Part shown: piece by piece, positions 1 through 56,386 of the stretch
Numbering within the stretch: the stretch's first letter is position 1
How the letters are laid out: each line of letters starts with the position of its first letter
Assembly (NCBI GenBank): GCA_030390025.1
Contig: CM059432.1
Coordinates: forward strand, 61,072,001 to 61,136,000
Length of the DNA: 64,000 nucleotides
Reading direction: 5' to 3'
DNA from: Squalus acanthias
Taxonomy: Eukaryota
Notes under the pieces: model-generated
Told to the model about the DNA's origin: nothing
The model's input: the letters and a program-made list of their open reading frames with translations, nothing else
Databases searched by the model: none
Program-made: the position numbers and the translations under genes

Positions 1-5
1 TGGAC

Positions 6-408
6 ATGAACACCATGTCCCCCATCCTGGGCGCCATGGCCCCCCGTCAACCCGCCGACATGGCGTCACAGTGCCACGCCCGGGCCACGGATGACTACTC
101 GGCACTCCTGGCCGAATTCCCGGCCCTTACCAATCCGACCTTCTTCGCGGAGGCCGCCAAACACGGGGTGGAACACTTCATCCCCACCACAGGCCCCCCA
201 GTGTACGCCCACGCCCGCAGGCTGGACCCGACCAAACTGGAGATCGCGCGGACCGAGTTTGCCACCATGGAACAGCTCGGCATCATCCGCCGCTCCAACA
301 GTCCCTGGGCCTCCCCACTCCACATCGCCCCCAAACCAGGCGGAGGTTGGCGCCCCTGCGGGGATTACCACCGCCTCAACGACGCCACCACCCCTGGTCG
401 GTACCCCG
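6..408 (+). pseudogene. Host Gypsy pol, N-terminal RT segment, cut by the nested insertion
   Basis: HGVEHFIPTTGPPV...SPWASPLH...CGDYHRLN; removing the insert and one TSD copy restores RYPVPHIQDF in frame. Confidence 0.9.
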
Positions 409-602
409 TGTGGTAACACAATACAGCTTCCTGTGACTCGAACTTTATTGCATCACTTCCTGTGATTAGTCCAGGATAAATACTGGACTGAGCAGTTGGA
501 TCCTGGAGAGGCATAGAGTAAGACCTCTTTTGTATGTAGCACCTTTTTAGTTGATTAAAGCTTACTTTAAGTTCACCACGCGTAAGGCTCATTCTTACGA
601 CA
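409..602 (+). repeat. 5' LTR (194 bp)
   Basis: TGTGGTAAC...TTACGACA; identical by eye to 4656-4849; ATTAAA at 554-559. Confidence 0.97.
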
Positions 603-603
603 A

Positions 604-614
604 TTTAATCAACT
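604..614 (+). promoter_or_regulatory. Non-tRNA primer-binding site, complementary to LTR positions 549-559 (putative self-primer)
   Basis: TTTAATCAACT is the exact reverse complement of AGTTGATTAAA (549-559); no TGG-type tRNA PBS follows the LTR. Confidence 0.75.
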
Positions 615-680: not shown

Positions 681-3600
681 ATGGAAAACATCCTTAAACC
701 ATCGCGTCTTGACTTGGACCCAAACACCCCAGCAGCCGGTAAGGTGTGGAAACACTGGTATCGCACGTTTGACAATTTTCTCGAATATTGCAAGGCTGAT
801 GATGACACAAAGTTGCGGATACTCATCAACTGTGTCACTCCGAATGTATTTCAGTATGTTGAGGAATGGGGCAGTTACGAGGAGGCAATTCGGACGCTTA
901 AAAGACTATATACTAAGACACCGAATGAGGTCTATGCCAGACATCTACTAGCTACAGCCCAACAAGGGCCGGAGGAATCCATTGATAAATTCCTCCAAGA
1001 GCTTCGCAGACTTAGTATGGACTGTAACTTTCAGGCGGCCTCAGCTGAGCTGTACCGTGAAGAAATGATCCGTGATGCTTTCATCTGCGGGCTTGCCTCC
1101 CCATTTATACGCCAGCGTCTACTGGAAAGTAAGACACTTGAGCGTCAGAGAGCTTATGACATGGCTTGCTCTCTAGATCTGGCAAAAAGAAATGCAGACC
1201 TTTATACAGTGCCCAGACCTCGGTCTGCTGCCTTAACTACAGTCAGGCAATTTAAGAGGCCACAGGTGAACTCTATTAGGGAGGACTTTATTCCTGATGA
1301 TCAATCTGATGACTTCACTGATGAAGAGGATGATGACCCCACTGTGGCAGCCTCTTGGCAATCTAAGAAATGCTTCTTTTGTGGTGATGAGTTTCACCCT
1401 CGGAAATTCTGCCCTGCTCGCAATACGTTTTGCAGTCATTGCAACAAAAAGGGTCATTTTGCAAAGGTTTGCCTATCAAGAGCCTCTACGAGGGCTTATC
1501 AAGCTAAGTCCTACCGAACTGCCCCGGTAAGGGCCTATCAAGATGTTCCGGCTAAAATCTATCGTGCTTCCTCTCGGGTTTTCTCTCGAAGAAACACACC
1601 TAGAGTTTCAGCCACTCTTTGTGCAACGACACCAATTACAGCTGCTTGTCCTCAGAACCTATTCCATGCAGCTACAAAAGCATCAATTAATGGACATACT
1701 TTAGATGCCTTAATTGACTCAGGTAGCACTGATAGTTTCATTAGGGAACAGATTGTTGCAGAGTTAAAGCTACATGTTTTCCCATCGGACCAGGCAATTG
1801 CGATGGCTCAGTCATCACTTAATACCAGAATTTCTGGCTTTTGTATGGTTGAAATAACACTTAATGGTCACAGGTATCCCTCCACCCGGCTTTCGGTGCT
1901 CAAGGACTTATGTAGTGATCTTATCTTAGGGCTGGATTTTCAAAAGCAGCATAAGAAGCTCACCATTGAGTTCGGCGGATCCAAACCTGAACTCACTATT
2001 TCTAATATACAACCTCGATTACCGTTCTGTGCATTGTCAGCAGCTTCACTGGACGAACCCTCACTGTTTACCAGTATCCCTCCTCGATGCAAACCGATTA
2101 TAACAAAGTCACGACGTTTCAGTCAGGAAGACCAGTCTTTTATTGCGGCTGAGATTTCTCGGCTTTTAGCAGAGGATATCATCGAGCCTTGTTCGTCGCC
2201 ATGGCGCGCCCAGGTCGTTATTGTTAAGAACCCTCTACAACCTCACAAGAAACGGCTGTGCATTGACTATTCACAGACCATCAATCAATATACGGACTTG
2301 GACGCATACCCATTGCCGCGCATCGATGATATGGTTAATAAACTGGCTGAGTACACGGTGTTCTCAACATATGATCTGAAAAGTGCCTATCATCAGGTAC
2401 CCTTGAAGGTCTCAGACAAGCAGTATACGGCCTTTGAAGCCAATGGACGGCTGTATCAATTTCGTCGCCTCCCCTTTGGGGTCACTAATGGAGTGGCTGT
2501 CTTCCAGCGAGCAATGGATGACCTGGTCAAACAGGAAGACTTGAAGGATACGTTTCCTTATCTGGACAATATTACTGTCGCAGGTCGCAATCAGCGGGAA
2601 CATGACGCCAATCTCCAACGATTTTGGGATGCACTCCAGCACCGTAATTTGACATTAAATGCGGCTAAATCCATTGAGTCACAACCAACCATCAACATCC
2701 TTGGCTATTGTGTGGGCAATGGCATCATTAAACCTGACCCTGAAAGGCTTCGCCCACTCCAAGAGCTCCCGCCACCTAAGAATCCGGCCTCCTTGCGCCG
2801 GGCCCTCGGCCTGTTTGCATACTATGCTAAATGGATTCCTAACTTCTCGGACCGAATCCAACCTCTACTGAAGGCCAGCACATTCCCACTAGACACAGCG
2901 GCTGTTGCAGCCTTTAACCTCCTGAAAAAACAGTTGGAGAAAGCGGCTCTTCACTCCATCGATGAGAGTCTTCCTTTTGTTGTTGAGTGTGATGCCTCGG
3001 AGGTGGCGATCTCGGCCACTCTGAATCAGGAAGGTCGTCCGGTGGCATTTTTGTCCAGGACTTTTCAAGGGGCTGAGCTACATTATCCTCCAGTCGAGAA
3101 AGAAGCTACAGCCATCATAGAGGCAGTATGGAAGTGGACTCATCTCCTAGCTCGCCAGCACTTTACCTTAATCACGGACCAGCGATCGGTCGCCTTCATG
3201 CTCGATAATCGAAAACGGACCAAAATTAAAAATAATAAAATCCAGCTTTGGCGGCTGGAATTGGCCTCTTTTGGTTACACCATCCACTATCGACCTGGCA
3301 AGGAGAATGTGGCTCCGGATACCCTCACACGAGCATTCTGCTCCGCCATGGCACCCTCTACGCTCGTAGACATCCATGATGGGTTGTGTCATCCGGGCGT
3401 TACTCGCATGCTACACTTCGTGCGGTCCCGAAATCTCCCATTCTCTACCGGGGATGTAAAGAAGATGTGCTCGGACTGCAGAGTCTGTGCGGAATTGAAA
3501 CCTCAGTTTTTCCGCCCCTCGGGTGGTATACTCATACATGCGACCCAGCCAATGCAACGGCTTAGCATCGATTTTAAGGGGCCGTTGCCCTCTTCAACTC

Positions 3601-4637
3601 GCAACACTTATCTATTGACCATGGTCGATGAGTATTCCCGTTTTCCGTTTGCCTTTCCCTGCCCCAATATGCTGACGACCACGGTTATCAGCTGCCTTGA
3701 GCAGGTATTTGCTTTCTGTGGCATGGCATCCTATGTTCATTCGGATCGGGGCCCTTCTTTTATGTCAGGAGAACTCAAGGCCTATCTCTCGGAACGGGGT
3801 ATTGCTGCCAGCAGAACGACGCCTTATCATCCGGTCGGGAATGGGCAAGTCGAGCGTTTTAACGCTATCATCTGGAATGCGGTACGTCTGGCTTTGAGAT
3901 CTCGGGGCCTACCCAACCAGCAATGGGAAGCAGTACTTCCAGACGCATTACACTCCACACGGTCCCTCCTTTCGACCGCCACAAATACGACGCCTCATGA
4001 ACGGTTCTTCCGATTTCAGCGTCGCTCATCCTATGGGATATCTCTCCCGTCGTGGCTGACTGCACCGGGACCAGTGCTACTCCGAAGATATGTTCGGGCG
4101 TCTAAGAATGACCCCCTGGTAGATGAGGTTGAGCTCACTGACGTCAACCCTACCTACGTCTATATTCGGTATCCTGACGGTCGGGAATCTACCGTGTCAT
4201 TGCGGGATCTGGCTCCCTGCCCGCCGAAACATAGAGGGACACCAGGGGATGATATTGTACCAGGCACATCTCTGGGCTCGCCAGGTGCCTCTCATCACGA
4301 TCTGGATCTGACGCCGGCTGGTACCTCACTCCAGCGTGCCGACCTGGGGCAGACTGACTATGAGCCCGTCGGGGCTCGCACGCGCAGCCATGATCCACCC
4401 CGTACCATACGCTCGGAAACGGATCTGCCACAGCCCTGCCCGACACCCGTTCGGGCACCAGTACTCAGTCAGGATCGTCCTGACCCCTCACAGAGCGGGC
4501 TGGATCACTCGGACTCTGGTCCACGGCCCGTGGCGGGTAAACGGGCTAGGGGCCCTCTACCGCTACGAGAACCCAAACGGGTGCGGCTCTCCCTCGTCCG
4601 GCGGCTACGAAATGGAGGGAGCATCCCGGCCTCCTAA
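681..4637 (+). CDS. Single-ORF Gag-Pol polyprotein, 1318 aa (gag, zinc knuckles, protease, RT, RNase H, integrase)
   Basis: Knuckles CFFCGDEFHPRKFC and CSHCNKKGHFAKVC; protease LIDSGS; RT YDLKSAYHQ, LPFG, YLDN; RNase H ECDAS; integrase HHCC (IHDGLCHPG...CRVC) and DDE (IDFKG, SDRG, VERFN). RT-RH-IN order is Gypsy. Confidence 0.96.
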   Translation: MENILKPSRLDLDPNTPAAGKVWKHWYRTFDNFLEYCKADDDTKLRILINCVTPNVFQYVEEWGSYEEAIRTLKRLYTKTPNEVYARHLLATAQQGPEESIDKFLQELRRLSMDCNFQAASAELYREEMIRDAFICGLASPFIRQRLLESKTLERQRAYDMACSLDLAKRNADLYTVPRPRSAALTTVRQFKRPQVNSIREDFIPDDQSDDFTDEEDDDPTVAASWQSKKCFFCGDEFHPRKFCPARNTFCSHCNKKGHFAKVCLSRASTRAYQAKSYRTAPVRAYQDVPAKIYRASSRVFSRRNTPRVSATLCATTPITAACPQNLFHAATKASINGHTLDALIDSGSTDSFIREQIVAELKLHVFPSDQAIAMAQSSLNTRISGFCMVEITLNGHRYPSTRLSVLKDLCSDLILGLDFQKQHKKLTIEFGGSKPELTISNIQPRLPFCALSAASLDEPSLFTSIPPRCKPIITKSRRFSQEDQSFIAAEISRLLAEDIIEPCSSPWRAQVVIVKNPLQPHKKRLCIDYSQTINQYTDLDAYPLPRIDDMVNKLAEYTVFSTYDLKSAYHQVPLKVSDKQYTAFEANGRLYQFRRLPFGVTNGVAVFQRAMDDLVKQEDLKDTFPYLDNITVAGRNQREHDANLQRFWDALQHRNLTLNAAKSIESQPTINILGYCVGNGIIKPDPERLRPLQELPPPKNPASLRRALGLFAYYAKWIPNFSDRIQPLLKASTFPLDTAAVAAFNLLKKQLEKAALHSIDESLPFVVECDASEVAISATLNQEGRPVAFLSRTFQGAELHYPPVEKEATAIIEAVWKWTHLLARQHFTLITDQRSVAFMLDNRKRTKIKNNKIQLWRLELASFGYTIHYRPGKENVAPDTLTRAFCSAMAPSTLVDIHDGLCHPGVTRMLHFVRSRNLPFSTGDVKKMCSDCRVCAELKPQFFRPSGGILIHATQPMQRLSIDFKGPLPSSTRNTYLLTMVDEYSRFPFAFPCPNMLTTTVISCLEQVFAFCGMASYVHSDRGPSFMSGELKAYLSERGIAASRTTPYHPVGNGQVERFNAIIWNAVRLALRSRGLPNQQWEAVLPDALHSTRSLLSTATNTTPHERFFRFQRRSSYGISLPSWLTAPGPVLLRRYVRASKNDPLVDEVELTDVNPTYVYIRYPDGRESTVSLRDLAPCPPKHRGTPGDDIVPGTSLGSPGASHHDLDLTPAGTSLQRADLGQTDYEPVGARTRSHDPPRTIRSETDLPQPCPTPVRAPVLSQDRPDPSQSGLDHSDSGPRPVAGKRARGPLPLREPKRVRLSLVRRLRNGGSIPAS

Positions 4638-4643
4638 TCTTTT

Positions 4644-4655
4644 GGGGGGGGAGAA
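4644..4655 (+). promoter_or_regulatory. Polypurine tract
   Basis: G-run followed by AGAA, directly 5' of the 3' LTR. Confidence 0.85.
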
Positions 4656-4849
4656 TGTGGTAACACAATACAGCTTCCTGTGACTCGAACTTTATTGCAT
4701 CACTTCCTGTGATTAGTCCAGGATAAATACTGGACTGAGCAGTTGGATCCTGGAGAGGCATAGAGTAAGACCTCTTTTGTATGTAGCACCTTTTTAGTTG
4801 ATTAAAGCTTACTTTAAGTTCACCACGCGTAAGGCTCATTCTTACGACA
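4656..4849 (+). repeat. 3' LTR (194 bp)
   Basis: Identical to 409-602 and followed by TSD CCCCG. Confidence 0.97.
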
Positions 4850-4854
4850 CCCCG

Positions 4855-7197
4855 TGCCGCACATTCAGGACTTCTCGGCTAGACTGGCCGGCCGCTCAGT
4901 CTTTTCCAAGGTCGACCTGGTGCGCGGCTACCACCAAGTCCCCATCCACCCTGCGGACGTCCCCAAGACGGCCGTAATCACCCACTTCGGCCTGTTCGAG
5001 TTCCTGCAGATGCCCTTCAGCCTCAAAAACGTGGCCCAGGCATTCCAACGGCTCATGAACTCGGTCCTTCGGGACCTGAAGTTCCTGTTTGTCTACCTGG
5101 ACGACATCCTGGTAGCCAGTTCCTCCAAGCAGGAACACCTCGAACACCTTCGCATCCTGTTCGGGCGCCTCAGCGACCACGGGCTCATCCTCAGCCCAGC
5201 CAAATGCCAGTTCGGCCTGGACAAGATCGACTTCCTCGGCCACCACATCACCCATGCTGGGGCCATTCCCCTGCCCACCAAGGTGCAGGCTGTCCAACAA
5301 TTTCCCTGCCCCACCACCATCAAAGGCCTCCAGGAGTTCCTCGGGATGGTGAATTTCTATAACCGCTTCATCCCCAAAGCGGCGTCCCTCATGAGGCCCC
5401 TGTATGAAGCCCCTGTATGAAGCCCTCCGGGGCAGGAGCGGAAAGATGGCGGTCGAATGGACGGCAGACGCGTCCGCCGCCTTCGACTCCACCAAGACCG
5501 CGCTCGCCAACGCCACCCTGCTCGCGCACCCACGGCCCAATGCCAGGGTAGCGCTCACCACGGACGCCTCTGACCACGCGGTCGGCGCCGTGTATGAGCA
5601 GTGGGTCGACGGCGCCTGGCAACCACTTGCCTTCTTCAGCCACCAACTACGCCCCCCGGAGGTCAAGTACAGCACCTTCGACCGTGAGCTCCTCGCGCTG
5701 TTCCTGGCGGTCCGCCATTTCCGGTTTTTGCTTGAGGGCCCCCCCTTCACTGCGTTTGTCGACCACAAGCCCCTGACATTCGCAATAGCAAAGACAACCG
5801 ACCCCTGGTCCACCAGGCAGCAGCGCCAGCTCGCGGCAGTGTCCGAGTTCACCACGGACATCCAACACGTCTCCGGCCGAGACAATGTGGTAGCCAACTG
5901 CCTCTCCCGCCCCGCCATCCACGCCGCACACCTGGCAGTCGACTACGCTCAACTCGCAGCAGACCAGATCACCGACCCTGATCTGCTCTCCGCACCCACC
6001 AACCTACCAGGGCTACGCCTGGCCGACGTCGCCTGTGGCCCGACCGCAGTCAAGGTCAAGTGCGACATATCCCTATGTCAACCTCGGCCCGTCGTCCCAG
6101 CGTCCTGGCGCCGCCGGGTATTCGACATTCTCCACAACCTCTCCCACCCCGGCGCCCGCGCATCCATCAAATTGGTAGCCAACCGCTTCGTCTGGCGCGG
6201 CCTTCGCAAGGATGTGCGTACTTGGGCTAACTCCTGCCTAGCCTGCCAATGGGCCAAGGTACAGCAACACACGAAAGCACCCCTCGAGGAGTTTACCGTC
6301 CCCTCGCGGAGATTCGACCACATCCACGTGGACATCGTCGGGCCCCTGCCGCCGTCGCAATGCCACACGCACTTGCTGACCATCGTTGACCGCACCACAC
6401 GCTGGCCCGAGGCAATTCCACTGACCTCTACCACCACCGCCGACATCGCCAGAGCCTTCGTCAGCACCTGGGTCGCACGGTTCGGCGTCCCCTCCGACAT
6501 GACGTCGGACAGAGGTCCACAATTTACCTCTGAACTCTGGACCGCCGTCGCACGCAATCTCGGGGTGACCATTCACCGCACCACAGCGTACCACCCCCAA
6601 GCCAATGGACTGTGTGAGCGGTTCCACAGATCCTTGAAGGCATCTCTTCGAGGCAGCCTCCAGGACGGCGCCTGGACCGACCGACTTCCGTGGGTCCTTC
6701 TCGGCCTGCGCACCGTGGTTAAAGAAGACCTCCACGCATCGGCAGCAGAGCTCGTGTACGGTCAGCTGCTGCGCGTACCCGGCAAGTTCCTGCCCACCGC
6801 CACGACACCCTGGTCAGCCGACCAGCAACGCCACGACTTCGCCTCACCGGCGCTGCAGTTCGCCCCGGTGCCCATTGCCCGACACGGCGAAACCCACCGC
6901 GGACCCCTTCAACCCCCGTACGACGGGCCCTACAAGGTGCTACAGGCTGGGGACAAATTTTTCACCCTGCAAGTGGGCGACAGGACCGAAAAAGTGTCGG
7001 TTGACCGACTCAAGCCAGCACACTCGGAGCCCGGTGAGCAGGTCCCTGTAGCTCTTCCACCTCCACGCGGCCGACCTGCCCTCAAGCCGGTTCACCTGGC
7101 TGCTCCACGCCCGGCCGTTCCACGTCCACCGGCATCCTACAAGAGCCGCTCCGGCCGGCCCATCAGACCGCCGCACCGTCTCGTCCACACCTCCTAA
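4855..7197 (+). pseudogene. Host Gypsy pol remainder (RT, RNase H, integrase), frameshifted
   Basis: ORFs 4854-5420 and 5404-7197 are offset by a 13-bp tandem duplication GCCCCTGTATGAA (5396-5408 and 5409-5421). Confidence 0.9.
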
Positions 7198-7217
7198 GTG
7201 GATTCTGGGGGGAGCTG

Positions 7218-7458
7218 TGTGGCGGATCGCCACCTAAACGGGCATTATCCACTCTTCCGTCCGTGGACAATATATCGAGCACCTTCCCTTTAAGGCACCT
7301 TACCTTTAAGGCAGGAGTGGGCGGGGCCTCAGGATTTTTCCAGAGAATTCTGGGAGCTTGCTGTTCAGCCATTTTGTACCATGCAGTGGTATTAAAAAAG
7401 TCTCTTGTTTTCCGCACATGGATTCAGCCTTAATTCGTGTTTCGTGGCAGCCTCAACA
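7218..7458 (+). repeat. Putative 3' LTR of the host Gypsy
   Basis: Follows PPT GGGGGGAG (7207-7214); TGTGGCGG...CCTCAACA ends; ATTAAA at 7391. The partner LTR is outside the window, so boundaries are approximate. Confidence 0.6.
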
Positions 7459-8407
7459 AGCTAGCAATATATAGGTCTGAAATATACAGTTGCCGATTTT
7501 CTTGTTCCCCAACCCACACCTGCGTGTCATGCAGACAGTGTGCTCTGCCTGGAACAACAGGAGCCTGCCTCCATTTCTGGGCTTATGTTATTATCGTAAC
7601 CCCAAAATGGCAGCCAGAAGGTTTCCATGCCAAGGAAAAGATGCCACTTATCCTTTTGAACCTCCGTAGCCTTGCTATTTGCCCGCCCCCCGTCAGATTC
7701 TGCACTCTGTGAGAGGCAGGTACAAGACTGACCTCTAACTTCTTCTAGAATTGCTCCAGAAATTAACCCCAGTGCTTTGTTTGCATTTTTTATGGCCTTG
7801 TTAACCTACGTTGCTGCTATTAATGATTTGAGAATATGTACCCCTAGATCTCTTTGCTCCTTATCCAATTTAGACTCTTGGGGGGCGATGTTCCCAGCCC
7901 CGAGAAGGCATGTTTGGAGGCGGGACAGTTGGCAAAAATTGCAAAAAGTGAGGGTGGGTTCGGAACCCGCCTTCAACCCACCTCCGCGCAATTTTGCCGA
8001 AGGTGGGTTAGATGGGTGCAATTCGGTCCCGCGTCCATCAGTCGGGAGAGGTAGTTAAGACCCTTAAATAGTCGTAAGGGCCTCTATAATCCTATTTTGA
8101 CAGGCCTTTGTTATTTTGCCACATTTTGTGCGTTTTGCACAACCCTCCTAAACCACGCCAGCTGATCCTGGCGGGTTGACAAGTGGGTGGCCTCCTCACA
8201 GCTGCAGCTCCACCATTAAGACGGAGCTTTCATCAGGGATTAGTTGCAGGTAGCAGAACTTTTGTTCCACAGGTCTTTCAGCACTTTTAGCAGGCCTACG
8301 GAAGTCGGAGGTGCTGCAGCTTCTATCTCTGAACTGTGGGCCCTCCTTGGAAGACCCTCTCCCCTCTTGGACTGAGTGCTTCCCCAACGGAGGTATCTGC
8401 CAGCAGC

Positions 8408-9578
8408 ATGGGAATCATTTATTTCCTTTCATCATGGACCTCAAATTTGGATGAGGAGCAGCCAAGGCAGCAGCAGAACCAGGCAGCTCAGCAGCAACAG
8501 CAGCAGGAGCGCCAACCTCCTGCTCACCCACCTGATGCTGCACAGGGCAGAAGGCGCCAGCGCATGGAAGCACGTCGCCGCTGGAGATACCGCCCTCTTA
8601 GGGTTTACAGACAGTGGATGAGCTACCTCAACGTGAGTGAGCAGCAGTGCCAAAGGAGGCTGAGACTTTCGCGAGAGGTTGTCGGAGACATCTGCGCACT
8701 GCTGCACCAACACCTGGAGCCCAGAGGAGCGGGTGGACACCCCTTACCAGTGGCTGTCAAAGTCACCACCGCACTCAACTTTTTTGCCTCAGGCTCCTTC
8801 CAGGGATCATCAGCAGACATCAGCGGCATCTCTCAGTCAGCCGCCCACAGTTGCATCACGCAGGTTACCGATGCCCTTTTCGCAAAGGCGCACAATTACA
8901 TCCACTTCTCAAGGGATCAAGCAAGTGTCACCGCACGTTCGCTTGGCTTTGCAAATATGGCAGGCTTGCCAATGGTGTAGGGCGTCATAGACTGCACACA
9001 TGTGGCCCTTAGTGCACCCCATCACAACCCAGCTATCTTTGTCACAAGAGGAGTTTTTGCATGTTTGCTCCAAATTCTGTGGTAGTTGCCATGACTCTTT
9101 CATCCTGCGGAACTCTAGTGTTGCTCCGCTCTTCAATCCGCCAAACCAACTTAACAGATGGCTCCTTGGTGACAAGGGCTACCCCCTGAAGAAGTGGTTA
9201 ATGACACCGATCAGGAGGCCAGCTAACGAGGCTGAGGAGCGCTACAACGCCAGCCACATTTTAACCAGGTCCATCATCAAGCAAACCATTGGCTTGCTGA
9301 AGATGCGATTCCAGTGCCTTAACAGATCAGGTGGAGCCCTGGAGTATTCAACAGCCAGGGTCTCCAGAATGGTCGTGGTCTGCTGTGCACTGCACAACAT
9401 GGCACTGTATCGTGGCTTGCAGCTTCCTGATGAGCAAGTGGCTCAGTTCATACCCTCCTCAGATGAGGAGGAGGAGGAGGACCGAGCGGTGGCGTATCTA
9501 CCAGCAGCAGCGGCAGCATGCGAGCACATGGCTGCCCGTGATGCAAGGGATGCACTCATCCTGGCCAGATTTGCATAG
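8408..9578 (+). pseudogene. Harbinger DDE transposase (HARBI1-like), disrupted
   Basis: [11 protein letters not shown]...[40 protein letters not shown]; in-frame TAG at 8978-8980 and a deletion/frameshift near 9030-9060. Confidence 0.9.
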
Positions 9579-15814: not shown

Positions 15815-17071
15815 TTAAGTAAATCTGGCCATGATGAGCCCATCCCTGAGCTCCCAGGCAGCAATGTGCTCGGGTGCTGGTGGGATCTGGACCGCAGGTT
15901 CCTCCTGCTCCTCTTCCTCCTCATCTTCCAGCTGATGCTCCTCTTGCTCCTGGTCCTCCTCCTCCTCCTCTGAAGAGGCTGATTGCTCAGAGCCTTTCTC
16001 CTCATGAAGCGCTAATCCTTGCTGCTGTGCTATGTTGCGCAGGGCGCAGCGGACCACGATGATTCTGGAAACCCTAGCTGGTGCATACTGAAGGGCTCTT
16101 CCAGATCTGTCAAGGCATCTGAGACGCATTTTCAGCATGCCTATTGTCTGCTCTATGACACATCTGGTGGAAATGTGGCTTTCATTATATCTCTCCTTGG
16201 CCTCAGTACTTGGTCTCCTCAAGGGTGCCATAAGCCACGTCTTCAGTGAATAGCCCTTGTCTCCAAGCAGCCAGCTAGAAAGTCTGTTTGGAGGAGCGAA
16301 GAGCTGAGGGAGGGTGGACTGGCGCAGGACAAAAGAGTCATGGCAGTTACCAGGGAAATTGGCGCACACATGCATGATGATCTTACTATGGTTGCAGACG
16401 AACTGCACATTGAGGGAGTGGAAGCACTTGCGGTTGACAAAGACTCCTGGGTGATGATGGGGTGCCCTGAAGGCCACATGTGTGTAGTCGATAACGTCCT
16501 GCACCCATGGGAAGCCAGCCAGAGCGGCAAAGGCCAGCGTCCACTCAGTAACACTGGCTTCATCAGTGGCAAAGTTGATATAATTGGCTGACTTGTCAAA
16601 GAGGGCATCGGTGACCTGTGTGATGCAGCTGTGGGCGGCCGACTGCAAGCTGCCGCAAATGTCTGCTGCAGGTCCCTGGAAGGAGCCTGAGGTGAAGAAG
16701 TTGAGGGCGCTGGTGACTTTGACAGCCACTGGTAAGGCATGTCCACCCGCACCTCTGGGCTGCAGGTCTTGCTCCAGCAATCTGCAAATGTCTGTGACAA
16801 CCTGCCGCGATAGCCTGAGCCTCCTTTGGCACTGCTGCTCCGTCATGTTGAGGAAGCTTATCGTCTACCTCTATACCCTGTGTTGGGCGTATCGTCTCCG
16901 GCGCGGTGCAGCCCTGTGCTGATGCCCTCTGTCCTGTGCAGATTCAGGTGGTTGAGGAAAAGGTTGGTGGTGTTGTTGTTGGTGCTGTTGGTGTGCCTGG
17001 TGCTGCTGGTGTTGGAGCTCATCGTGGTCCGATTATGAGGACCAAGGAGAGACAGTATAAACAGCACCCAT
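15815..17071 (-). pseudogene. Harbinger DDE transposase, about 418 codons, with in-frame stops in the N-terminal part
   Basis: ORF 15815-16846 keeps VIDYTHV, GDKGY and IEQTIG; it is in frame with the ATG at 17071 (MGAVYTVSPW), as in the copy starting at 56386. Confidence 0.92.
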
Positions 17072-55148: not shown

Positions 55149-56386
55149 TTAAGTAAATCTGGCCATGATGAGGCCATCCCTGGCCTCCCGGGCAGCAGTG
55201 TGCTCGGGTGCTGCTGGGATCTGGCCCACAGGTTCCTTCCGCTCCTGCTCCTCCTCATCTTCCAGCTGTTGCTCCTCCTGCTCCTTCTCCTCTGAAGAGG
55301 CTGTGCGCTCAGTGCCTAGCTCCTCATGCAGCGCTAATCCTTGCTGCTGCGCTATGTTGTGCAGGGCACAGCAGACCACGACGATTCTGGAGACCCTGGC
55401 TGGTGCATACTGAAGGGCTCCTCCAGATCTGTCAAGGCATCTGAAGTGCATTTTCAGCATGCCTATTGTCTGCTCTATGACACATCTGGTGGAGATGTGG
55501 CTTTTATTATATCTCTCCTCGGCCTCAGTACTTGGCCTCCTCAAGGGTGTCATGAGCCACGTCTTCAGTGGATAGCCCTTGTCTCCAAGCAGCCAACCAG
55601 AAAGCCTGTTTGGAGGTGTGAAGAGCTGAGGGAGGCTGGACTGGCGAAGGACAAAAGAGTCATGGCAGCTGCCAGGGAATTTGGCACACACATTCATGAT
55701 GATCTTCCTATGGTTGCAGACGAGCCGCATATTGAGGGAGTGGCAGCCTTTGTGGTTGACAAAGACTCCTGGGTTATGATGGGGTGCCCTGATGGCCACA
55801 TGTGTGCAGTCGATGATGCCCTGCACCCGTAGGAAGCCAACCAGACTGGAAAAGCTGAGCACCCGCACAGTAACACTGGCCTCATCAGTTGCAAAGTTGA
55901 TATAATTGGCTGACTTGTCAAAGAGGGCATCGGTGACCTGGGTGATGCATCGGTGGGCGGCCAACTGCAAGATGCCACAAATGTTTGCTGCAGGTCCCTG
56001 GAAGGAGCCTGAGGCGAAAAAGTTGAGGGCGCTAGTGACTCCATTGGTAAGGCATGTCCATCCGCTCCTCTGGGCTGCAGGTCTTGCTCCAGCAATCTGC
56101 AAATGTCTGCGACGACCTGGCACGATAGCCTTAGCCTCCTTTGGCACTGCTGCTCAGTCATGTTGAGGAAGCTCATCCTCTGCCTGTATACCCTGTGTTG
56201 GGGGTATTGCCTCCGGCGCACTGCAGCCCTGTGGAGCCCCCCTCTCTCCTGTGCAGCATCAGGGCGTTGAGGAGAAGGTTGGTGGTGTCGTTGTTGGTGC
56301 TGCTGGTGTGCCTGGTGCTGCTGGTGTTGGGCCTCATCGTGGTCAGATTCTGAGGACCAAGGTGAGACAGCATAAACAGCACCCAT
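55149..56386 (-). pseudogene. Harbinger DDE transposase with a single frameshift near 56040
   Basis: ORF from 56386 (MGAVYAV...LEQDLQPRG) switches frame to [14 protein letters not shown]...GIIDCTHV...GDKGY...IEQTIG...ARFT*; about 7 nt lost relative to the copy near 16720. Confidence 0.92.

Follow-up and report, generated by a model that had tools for sequence, protein, structure and literature searches.

A primer-binding site complementary to its own LTR points to self-priming in an animal Ty3/Gypsy clade outside the chromoviruses

The window analysed here is a stretch of 64,000 nucleotides from the genome of Squalus acanthias (GenBank assembly GCA_030390025.1, contig CM059432.1, positions 61,072,001 to 61,136,000 of the forward strand), and it contains an intact Ty3/Gypsy element with a target duplication, a polypurine tract and a single open frame (Table 1). 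Membership in Ty3/Gypsy is indicated by LTRs of the form TG...CA, a target-site duplication of 5 bp, the polypurine tract and the domain order PR-RT-RH-IN. Pfam recognises a protease, a reverse transcriptase (RT), an RNase H and the zinc finger and core of an integrase in the 1318-aa frame, which also holds two zinc-knuckle-like Cys motifs and the RT motif YLDN; the acidic residues of the RNase H are present, and the best solved structural relative is the Ty3 RT (E 1e-50). The element has inserted into an older Gypsy element, within its RT gene. This host element is frameshifted and belongs to another abundant family, presumably CsRn1-like; its 5′ LTR is itself split by a further insertion, and its TGG-type primer-binding site (PBS) we take to be tRNA-Trp-like. 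The rest of the window holds several related transposase-like frames (8333-9578, 15818-16864 and 55152-56153), by their motifs presumably Harbinger-like, along with other dispersed repeats.

Table 1. Features of the element and of its insertion site (positions are those of the window).
Feature	Position	Strand	Remarks
Left target-site duplication	404..408	+	CCCCG
5′ LTR	409..602	+	194 bp, TG...CA, same sequence as 3′ LTR
TATA-like box	475..484	+	GATAAATACT; ATAAATACT common to both sister families of the same genome
LTR motif	549..559	+	AGTTGATTAAA, candidate self-primer, complement of PBS
Poly(A) hexamer	554..559	+	ATTAAA, sole canonical hexamer of the LTR, within candidate primer
Hairpin P2	560..572	+	GCTTA/TAAGT, begins at first base past motif; enriched across families
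U5 stem	581..599	+	CGTAAGG/TCTTACG, 5-nt loop; predicted fold
Spacer, LTR end to PBS	603..603	+	One base; A in 26 of 31 families
Primer-binding position	604..614	+	TTTAATCAACT, without TGG start
gag-PR-RT-RNaseH-IN	681..4637	+	Single open frame, 1318 aa
Polypurine tract	4644..4655	+	GGGGGGGGAGAA
3′ LTR	4656..4849	+	Motif copy at 4796-4806, no PBS partner downstream
Right target-site duplication	4850..4854	+	CCCCG
Older host element, 3′ part	4850..7458	+	Another Gypsy family, TGG-type PBS
Older host element, 5′ part	1-408		

The two LTRs show 0 differences across 194 bp, and the 20-base junction of LTR and PBS occurs 2,267 times without mismatch in the 3.7 Gb genome (reversed control, 0). All 40 scored matches to positions 409-700 in the same genome were reported as 100% identical, and all 30 fetched loci of the element agree at motif and PBS while their target sites vary. 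This particular arrangement of LTR and PBS has therefore transposed, and the element is a very young, very abundant and intact retrotransposon of the non-chromovirus Ty3/Gypsy type.

The CA that ends the 5′ LTR is followed by A603 and then, at 604-614, by TTTAATCAACT. Reverse-complemented, these 11 nt are identical to AGTTGATTAAA at 549-559 within the LTR, and the match extends no further on either side. This complementarity, one base past the LTR, had been picked out by a sequence-only reading of the locus, and it is confirmed here: among 20,000 dinucleotide shuffles of the LTR, one gave 11 nt starting 0-3 nt past the LTR and 18 gave at least 10. A PBS with the TGG start expected of tRNA priming, which that reading had found to be missing, is absent both from the window and from the 31 related families described below, and the TTAGTT around 549 (547-552) is likewise present. 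What had been missed was the poly(A) hexamer ATTAAA within the motif (554-559) and the hairpin starting at 560. As a control, the older TGG-type host family shows 4 nt of self-complementarity in both copies examined. Contigs from sequencing runs contain an LTR subfamily, about 92% identical over window positions 451-604, in which 549-559 is unchanged and an A is added after 548; provided that 615 is still T, this A would give the duplex one further pair.

The element has many relatives at the protein level (of 8,000 candidates, 1,718 were scored), and few carry organism names, those that do being from shrimp, copepod, nematode, ascidian, sea anemone, mussel and catshark. For the comparison of LTR and PBS we fetched the best 80 of 528 confirmed metagenome loci, 8 genome-contig loci, which are probably eukaryotic contamination, and two sister families from the same genome; a search of viral contigs gave no relative of the element. 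Animal-type Gypsy elements also turned up in contigs assigned to bacterial MAGs and in one database entry for a Wolbachia plasmid (L133-L140 and L263), probably as host contamination. A locus counted as scorable if it had a gag start preceded by 110 bases or more (51 of 90), and every candidate of the form "CA + 1 base + 11 bases" was compared with the sequence upstream, the one-base offset having been built in after the window had shown it. Pairing in the same register reaches 11 of 11 in 35 of the 51 loci and at least 10 of 11 in 43, as against 0 and 4 cases, at 11 and at 10 respectively, in 1,020 shuffles. The remaining eight comprise three loci without signal (L032, L072, L074), three that pair at 8-9 of 11 positions (L077, L093, L095) and two that the script mis-scored (L043, L137) and that separately show stems of 13 and 15 bp. 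With the three signal-less and two mis-scored loci dropped, the other 46 were grouped by eye into 31 families, each represented by its best-paired copy, a choice that favours the result.

Compensatory change between the LTR motif and the PBS, which the sequence-only reading had proposed looking for in relatives, is found, with two-sided changes at all ten of positions 1-10. The 31 families carry 26 distinct 11-mer motifs, and at these ten positions 309 of 310 cells are Watson-Crick pairs; at position 11 the pair is broken in 4 of 31 families. A PBS makes on average 10.84 pairs with its own LTR and 7.57 with that of another family, and none of 100,000 permutations, in a scheme that ignores relatedness, reaches the observed sum. 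Judged from these alignments, 26 distinct sequences that each match their own LTR cannot stem from the descent of a single pair. The complementarity is a real and clade-wide feature, and its signature is that of a system which would work like Tf1.

Pairing usually does not stop at the 11-nt core. It runs past 11 nt, towards the upstream side of the motif, in 27 of the 31 families, in a family-specific manner and to a usual total of 12-18 bp, with a mean extension of 3.06 within families and 0.64 across them (0 of 20,000 permutations), and it fades by position -6; the family of the window lies at the short end of this range. The sequence-only reading had placed the transcription start at 549, such that the first 11 nt of the RNA would be the primer. 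The longer pairing does not support this, nor does the only TATA-like box, ATAAATACT, which is common to the three families of the same genome and lies 74-90 nt upstream of the motif (74 in the window), where it would predict an RNA start near 504-506; a start at 549 is thus doubtful. One raw RNA run, filed under another organism, gave 0 reads on the element, and three sets of contigs show no RNA ends. A TATA box at -25 to -35 of the motif was also considered and is not conserved, TATAWR being found there in 3 of 31 families. A splice acceptor at TTTTTAG was set aside, since the pairing spans the AG and runs on upstream in unspliced sequence.

Paired change can also be followed within single genomes. 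A forced-variant search returned 38 junctions altered at PBS position 8, of which 36 share one form found in a sister family, and 18 of the 19 that were examined out of these 36 belong to a sister subfamily of the same genome with PBS TTTAATCGACT and a longer loop; the 19th belongs to the main family and has changed in the PBS only. The matching C is present in at least one LTR of all 18 sister-subfamily copies. In 11 of them the 5′ LTR has the matching AGTCG, and in the other 7 it reads AGTTG or AGTCA while the 3′ LTR still has TCG, as fits CpG decay after insertion. The subfamily has therefore spread with both sides changed. Among the metagenome loci, one copy (L045) is changed in both LTRs and in the PBS, and another (L038) in both LTRs but not in the PBS; these are single cases, and the pattern would fit a PBS renewed from the primer when the plus strand is made, a process established for tRNA primers. 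Variants at PBS position 7 are uncompensated in 11 of 12 copies, 8 of which have a G-U pair as a result, and two changes confined to the 5′ LTR are uncompensated as well. The one compensated position-7 copy, L217, has the change in its 5′ LTR and PBS but not in its 3′ LTR; its target sites do not match, and it is probably a chimera. A compensated mini-lineage made up of L217 and L240 was rejected, the two having no other private change in common.

The fold predicted for the leader consists of three helices, namely the duplex of 549-559 with 604-614, the hairpin at 560-572 and the stem at 581-599. For the segment 549-614, which was trimmed to fit the stem, the folding energy is -15.3 kcal/mol (z -3.64), a value equalled by 1 of 200 shuffles; the same helices form in longer stretches, which are no more stable than their shuffles (549-680, z -0.77; 500-640, z -0.81). 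An Rfam search of 380-720 gave no match at E<=1. Across families a helix of at least 4 bp starting within one base of the motif end recurs as a conserved second helix, in such variants as GCCT/AGGC, ACCT/AGGT and ACTTT/AAAGT, and in 19 of 31 families, where 6.8 are expected, its start coincides with the first base of the loop (0 of 5,000 shuffles). The U5 stem CGTAAG/CTTACG to which the sequence-only reading drew attention exists in the window (581-586/594-599, with G587-U593 in addition) and is predicted in the sister family L111, but it is not enriched across the clade; a conserved clade-wide stem by the LTR end was rejected, with 1,738 of 2,000 shuffles as good. From the comparison of families, the conserved second helix is the one right after the motif, at 560-572, rather than that at 581-599.

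Priming of reverse transcription by the element's own RNA is in our view the best explanation of these data, and we regard it as quite probable, because both sides change together, the register is fixed at the PBS position, no TGG PBS is present and Tf1 provides a precedent. The tRNA-independent priming put forward on sequence grounds thus gains support from pairing with the own LTR in fixed register and with compensatory change. By analogy with Tf1, folding of the leader would bring 549-559 and 604-614 together in a duplex, with the short hairpin at 560-572 stacked against it; the RNase H of the element would cut at or next to the junction, after 558 or 559; and from the freed 3′-OH, U5 and R would be copied. 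Since position 11 is the sole frequently broken pair and AA precedes the 3′ LTR in 10 of the 11 cases listed, cleavage may occur after position 10, in which case each DNA end would keep two additional bases. For the 5′ end of the primer, three places may be considered: a cap at 549 itself, one just a few bases before it, and one some 45 nt upstream, behind the TATA-like box; a longer unpaired 5′ tail would not be expected to block priming. The same duplex would hide the poly(A) hexamer of the 5′ LTR, the hexamer being presumably free in the 3′ LTR. A more particular account, which we offer as tentative, holds that self-priming evolved separately in a non-chromovirus clade with Mag-type gag, spread over crustaceans, cnidarians, molluscs, tunicates, nematodes and cartilaginous fish; that the primer would be not the first 11 nt but an internal stretch ending in the poly(A) hexamer; and that one duplex would first silence the 5′-LTR signal and then prime after the junction cut, with the PBS re-copied in each cycle.

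The overlap with the hexamer invites the reading that the duplex serves to mask the 5′-LTR poly(A) signal against premature 3′ end formation, and that priming takes another route. AATAAA or ATTAAA lies within the motif in 20 of the 31 families, so that selection for masking could preserve some of the pairing; the LTR has no canonical hexamer other than 554-559; the five bases upstream of the motif are T-rich, as near poly(A) signals; and only the 5′ copy of the motif has a partner to pair with. However, 11 of the 31 families pair without a canonical hexamer (for example AGTTTTGAAGA/TCTTCAAAACT in L041) and three of these carry the hexamer in the loop, positions 1-5, which lie outside it, covary fully, masking needs no partner one base past the LTR end, and no other primer site is visible. 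As the sole function of the duplex masking is therefore unlikely, and it may be a second role. Marginally less probable is self-priming from the copy of the motif in the 3′ R, either of the same RNA looped end-to-end or of its dimer partner. The LTRs being identical, comparative data cannot separate the two copies, and use of the hexamer in the 3′ LTR would leave the motif at the 3′ end of the RNA, from where it could pair with the PBS; the 5′ copy, however, lies 24-70 nt from the PBS in 31 of 31 families and should win by local folding, and it is the 5′ copy that is used in Tf1 (PMC7175516).

Priming by a tRNA is very unlikely, and so is priming by a tRNA fragment or other host RNA with the LTR match as a by-product. 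Half-tRNA priming does exist in copia lineages (PMC6317226), and one 11-mer recurs in 5 of the 31 families. The comparison of the PBS region with host tRNAs, also foreseen by the sequence-only reading, spanned 9 distinct sequences of 4 isotypes only, and within that range it speaks against a tRNA, the best match being 9 nt long and beginning 8 bases past the LTR end, and the PBS lacking TGG; a tRNA gene search of the 64-kb window found none. The covariation is the stronger argument and largely refutes a host primer, for the PBS tracks its own LTR through 26 variants and within one genome. Least probable of all is an inverted repeat matched at the DNA level, by template switching or conversion between its arms, with no role in the RNA: L217, with 5′ LTR and PBS changed and 3′ LTR not, would suit it, but the register is fixed at the priming position in families down to about 40-55% protein identity, most changes after insertion are uncompensated, and the element would still need a primer.

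The clade to which the element belongs is set apart from the chromoviruses by several features. That no chromodomain follows the integrase, as had been noted from the sequence, is borne out by Pfam, and 0 of 29 clade proteins match Chromo or SH3_Tf2-1 (control P0315 matches both). GPY/F is found in the integrase tail of 0 of 65 clade proteins in which a regular expression found the core, and in 35 of 39 chromovirus proteins. The gag profile aligns with a K02A2.6-like gag, which we take to be Mag-type, at an hhalign probability of 100% (E 8e-40, 246 columns, double zinc knuckle included), as against 21% for chromovirus gag, a weak comparison based on 6 partial sequences. Three trees were built, from RT-RH (55 of 79 extracted rows), RT-RH under a mixture model (36 rows) and RT-RH-IN (30 rows), with SH-aLRT supports from quick searches and with references whose Mag and CsRn1 labels are our own assumption. 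In all three, the elements with self-complementarity group with their named relatives in a single branch on a long stem (support 100), and the chromodomain-bearing references, which are algal or unnamed and do not include Tf1/sushi, form a separate branch without this clade (98, 95 and 100). The clade is, by these sequence features, not a chromovirus.

The suggestion that this might be a self-priming lineage apart from Tf1/sushi accordingly stands as far as its position outside the chromoviruses goes; an origin independent of Tf1/sushi is likely, although the AU test did not reject a sister position to the algal or unnamed chromovirus references (p-AU 0.228 and 0.153). A union with Mag-type elements was not rejected either (0.563 and 0.475), nor was it recovered with support, the clade lying outside the Mag-type branch. 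With the Mag lineage the clade has in common a Mag-type gag with a double zinc knuckle and a single ORF; it differs in that its RT-RH(-IN) forms a long branch of its own (support 100) and its RT motif is mostly DN rather than the DD of Mag-type elements. The counts are xxDN in 94 of 120 clade proteins, xxDD in 16 and 10 not parsed, against DD in 93 of 112 Mag-type references. In the window the YLDN lies at 2559-2570, Asn standing where the second catalytic Asp would be, and the family is highly amplified nonetheless. Mag elements are tRNA-primed. When sushi-type references were sought in the same genome, the Chromo matches were not linked to an ORF of the 1318-aa type, DUF4939 gave none, and the SH3_Tf2-1 matches accompanied by an RT were retrovirus-like rather than sushi-type. 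A retrovirus-like RT with a QYVDD-type motif was seen at several places in this genome (L188-L194, L201, L204).

The element may not be new in name. In Cigr-1 of Ciona, short LTRs enclose a single ORF of about 1200 aa, and the gag resembles that of an echinoderm Mag element, an anatomy that the present element seems to share. Since its relatives include ascidian and mussel proteins, the clade probably already bears a Cigr-1 or MolGy name. In molluscs a Cigr-1 clade and 16 MolGy clades are distinguished (PMC6238403); the PBS has 0 mentions in the main text of that paper on mollusc clades or of PMC8556966 on annelid clades, and the RT motif had no match in 5 supplementary files of PMC6238403. 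A search of a cluster atlas gave only generic Gypsy clusters.

Self-primed Ty3/Gypsy elements comprise Tf1 and Tf2 of Schizosaccharomyces pombe and Tj1 of S. japonicus (PMC7175516, PMC4600332, PMC5341516), and in Tf1 the primer is the first 11 bases, released by an RNase H cut between bases 11 and 12 (PMC7175516). Like these elements, those of the present clade lack a tRNA PBS and have in its place one complementary to a motif of their own 5′ LTR, with a core of 11 nt. Unlike them, they usually pair over 12-18 bp, their RNA may start upstream of the motif, the motif often holds a poly(A) hexamer, the gag is Mag-type, the RT is mostly YxDN, and a chromodomain, an SH3_Tf2-1 match and GPY/F are all missing. 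Self-priming is also known for the Tf1/sushi group of yeast and vertebrates and predicted for Tcn1, and for such vertebrate, fungal and moss chromoviruses the prediction rests, as it does here, on complementarity of LTR and PBS (PMC6317226); the present clade, however, falls outside the chromovirus branch in all three trees, with algal or unnamed references. Self-priming is also predicted outside the chromoviruses, for the TAR lineage of plant Ty1/copia (Houba, Osr-1), which belongs to another superfamily and other hosts, and more than one origin is thus already assumed for the mechanism (PMC6317226).

In Tf1 of yeast, self-priming has been demonstrated; in the chromoviruses related to it and in one lineage of copia elements, it is predicted. 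In the literature that we covered, which lay outside subscription journals and Repbase notes, no description was found of self-priming in a non-chromovirus animal Gypsy clade, and those other sources may well hold an earlier record. If the reading is correct, independence from tRNA arose again within Gypsy, in a large animal clade with Mag-type gag, an element that uses no tRNA primer can exceed 2,000 copies in an animal genome of large size, and it would perhaps lie outside the reach of control by tRNA fragments. A PBS that matches its own LTR explains why annotation tools that depend on a PBS would find none in this clade. The covarying duplex, the adjoining hairpin and the poly(A) overlap together would make up a small RNA structure with a directly testable cut site.

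At one locus (L268, G000:C1:566000-575400), at least three elements stand in tandem with common LTRs and a period of 4,247 bases, and a similar spacing is seen in a sister family at G000:C4:938983 and 943278.
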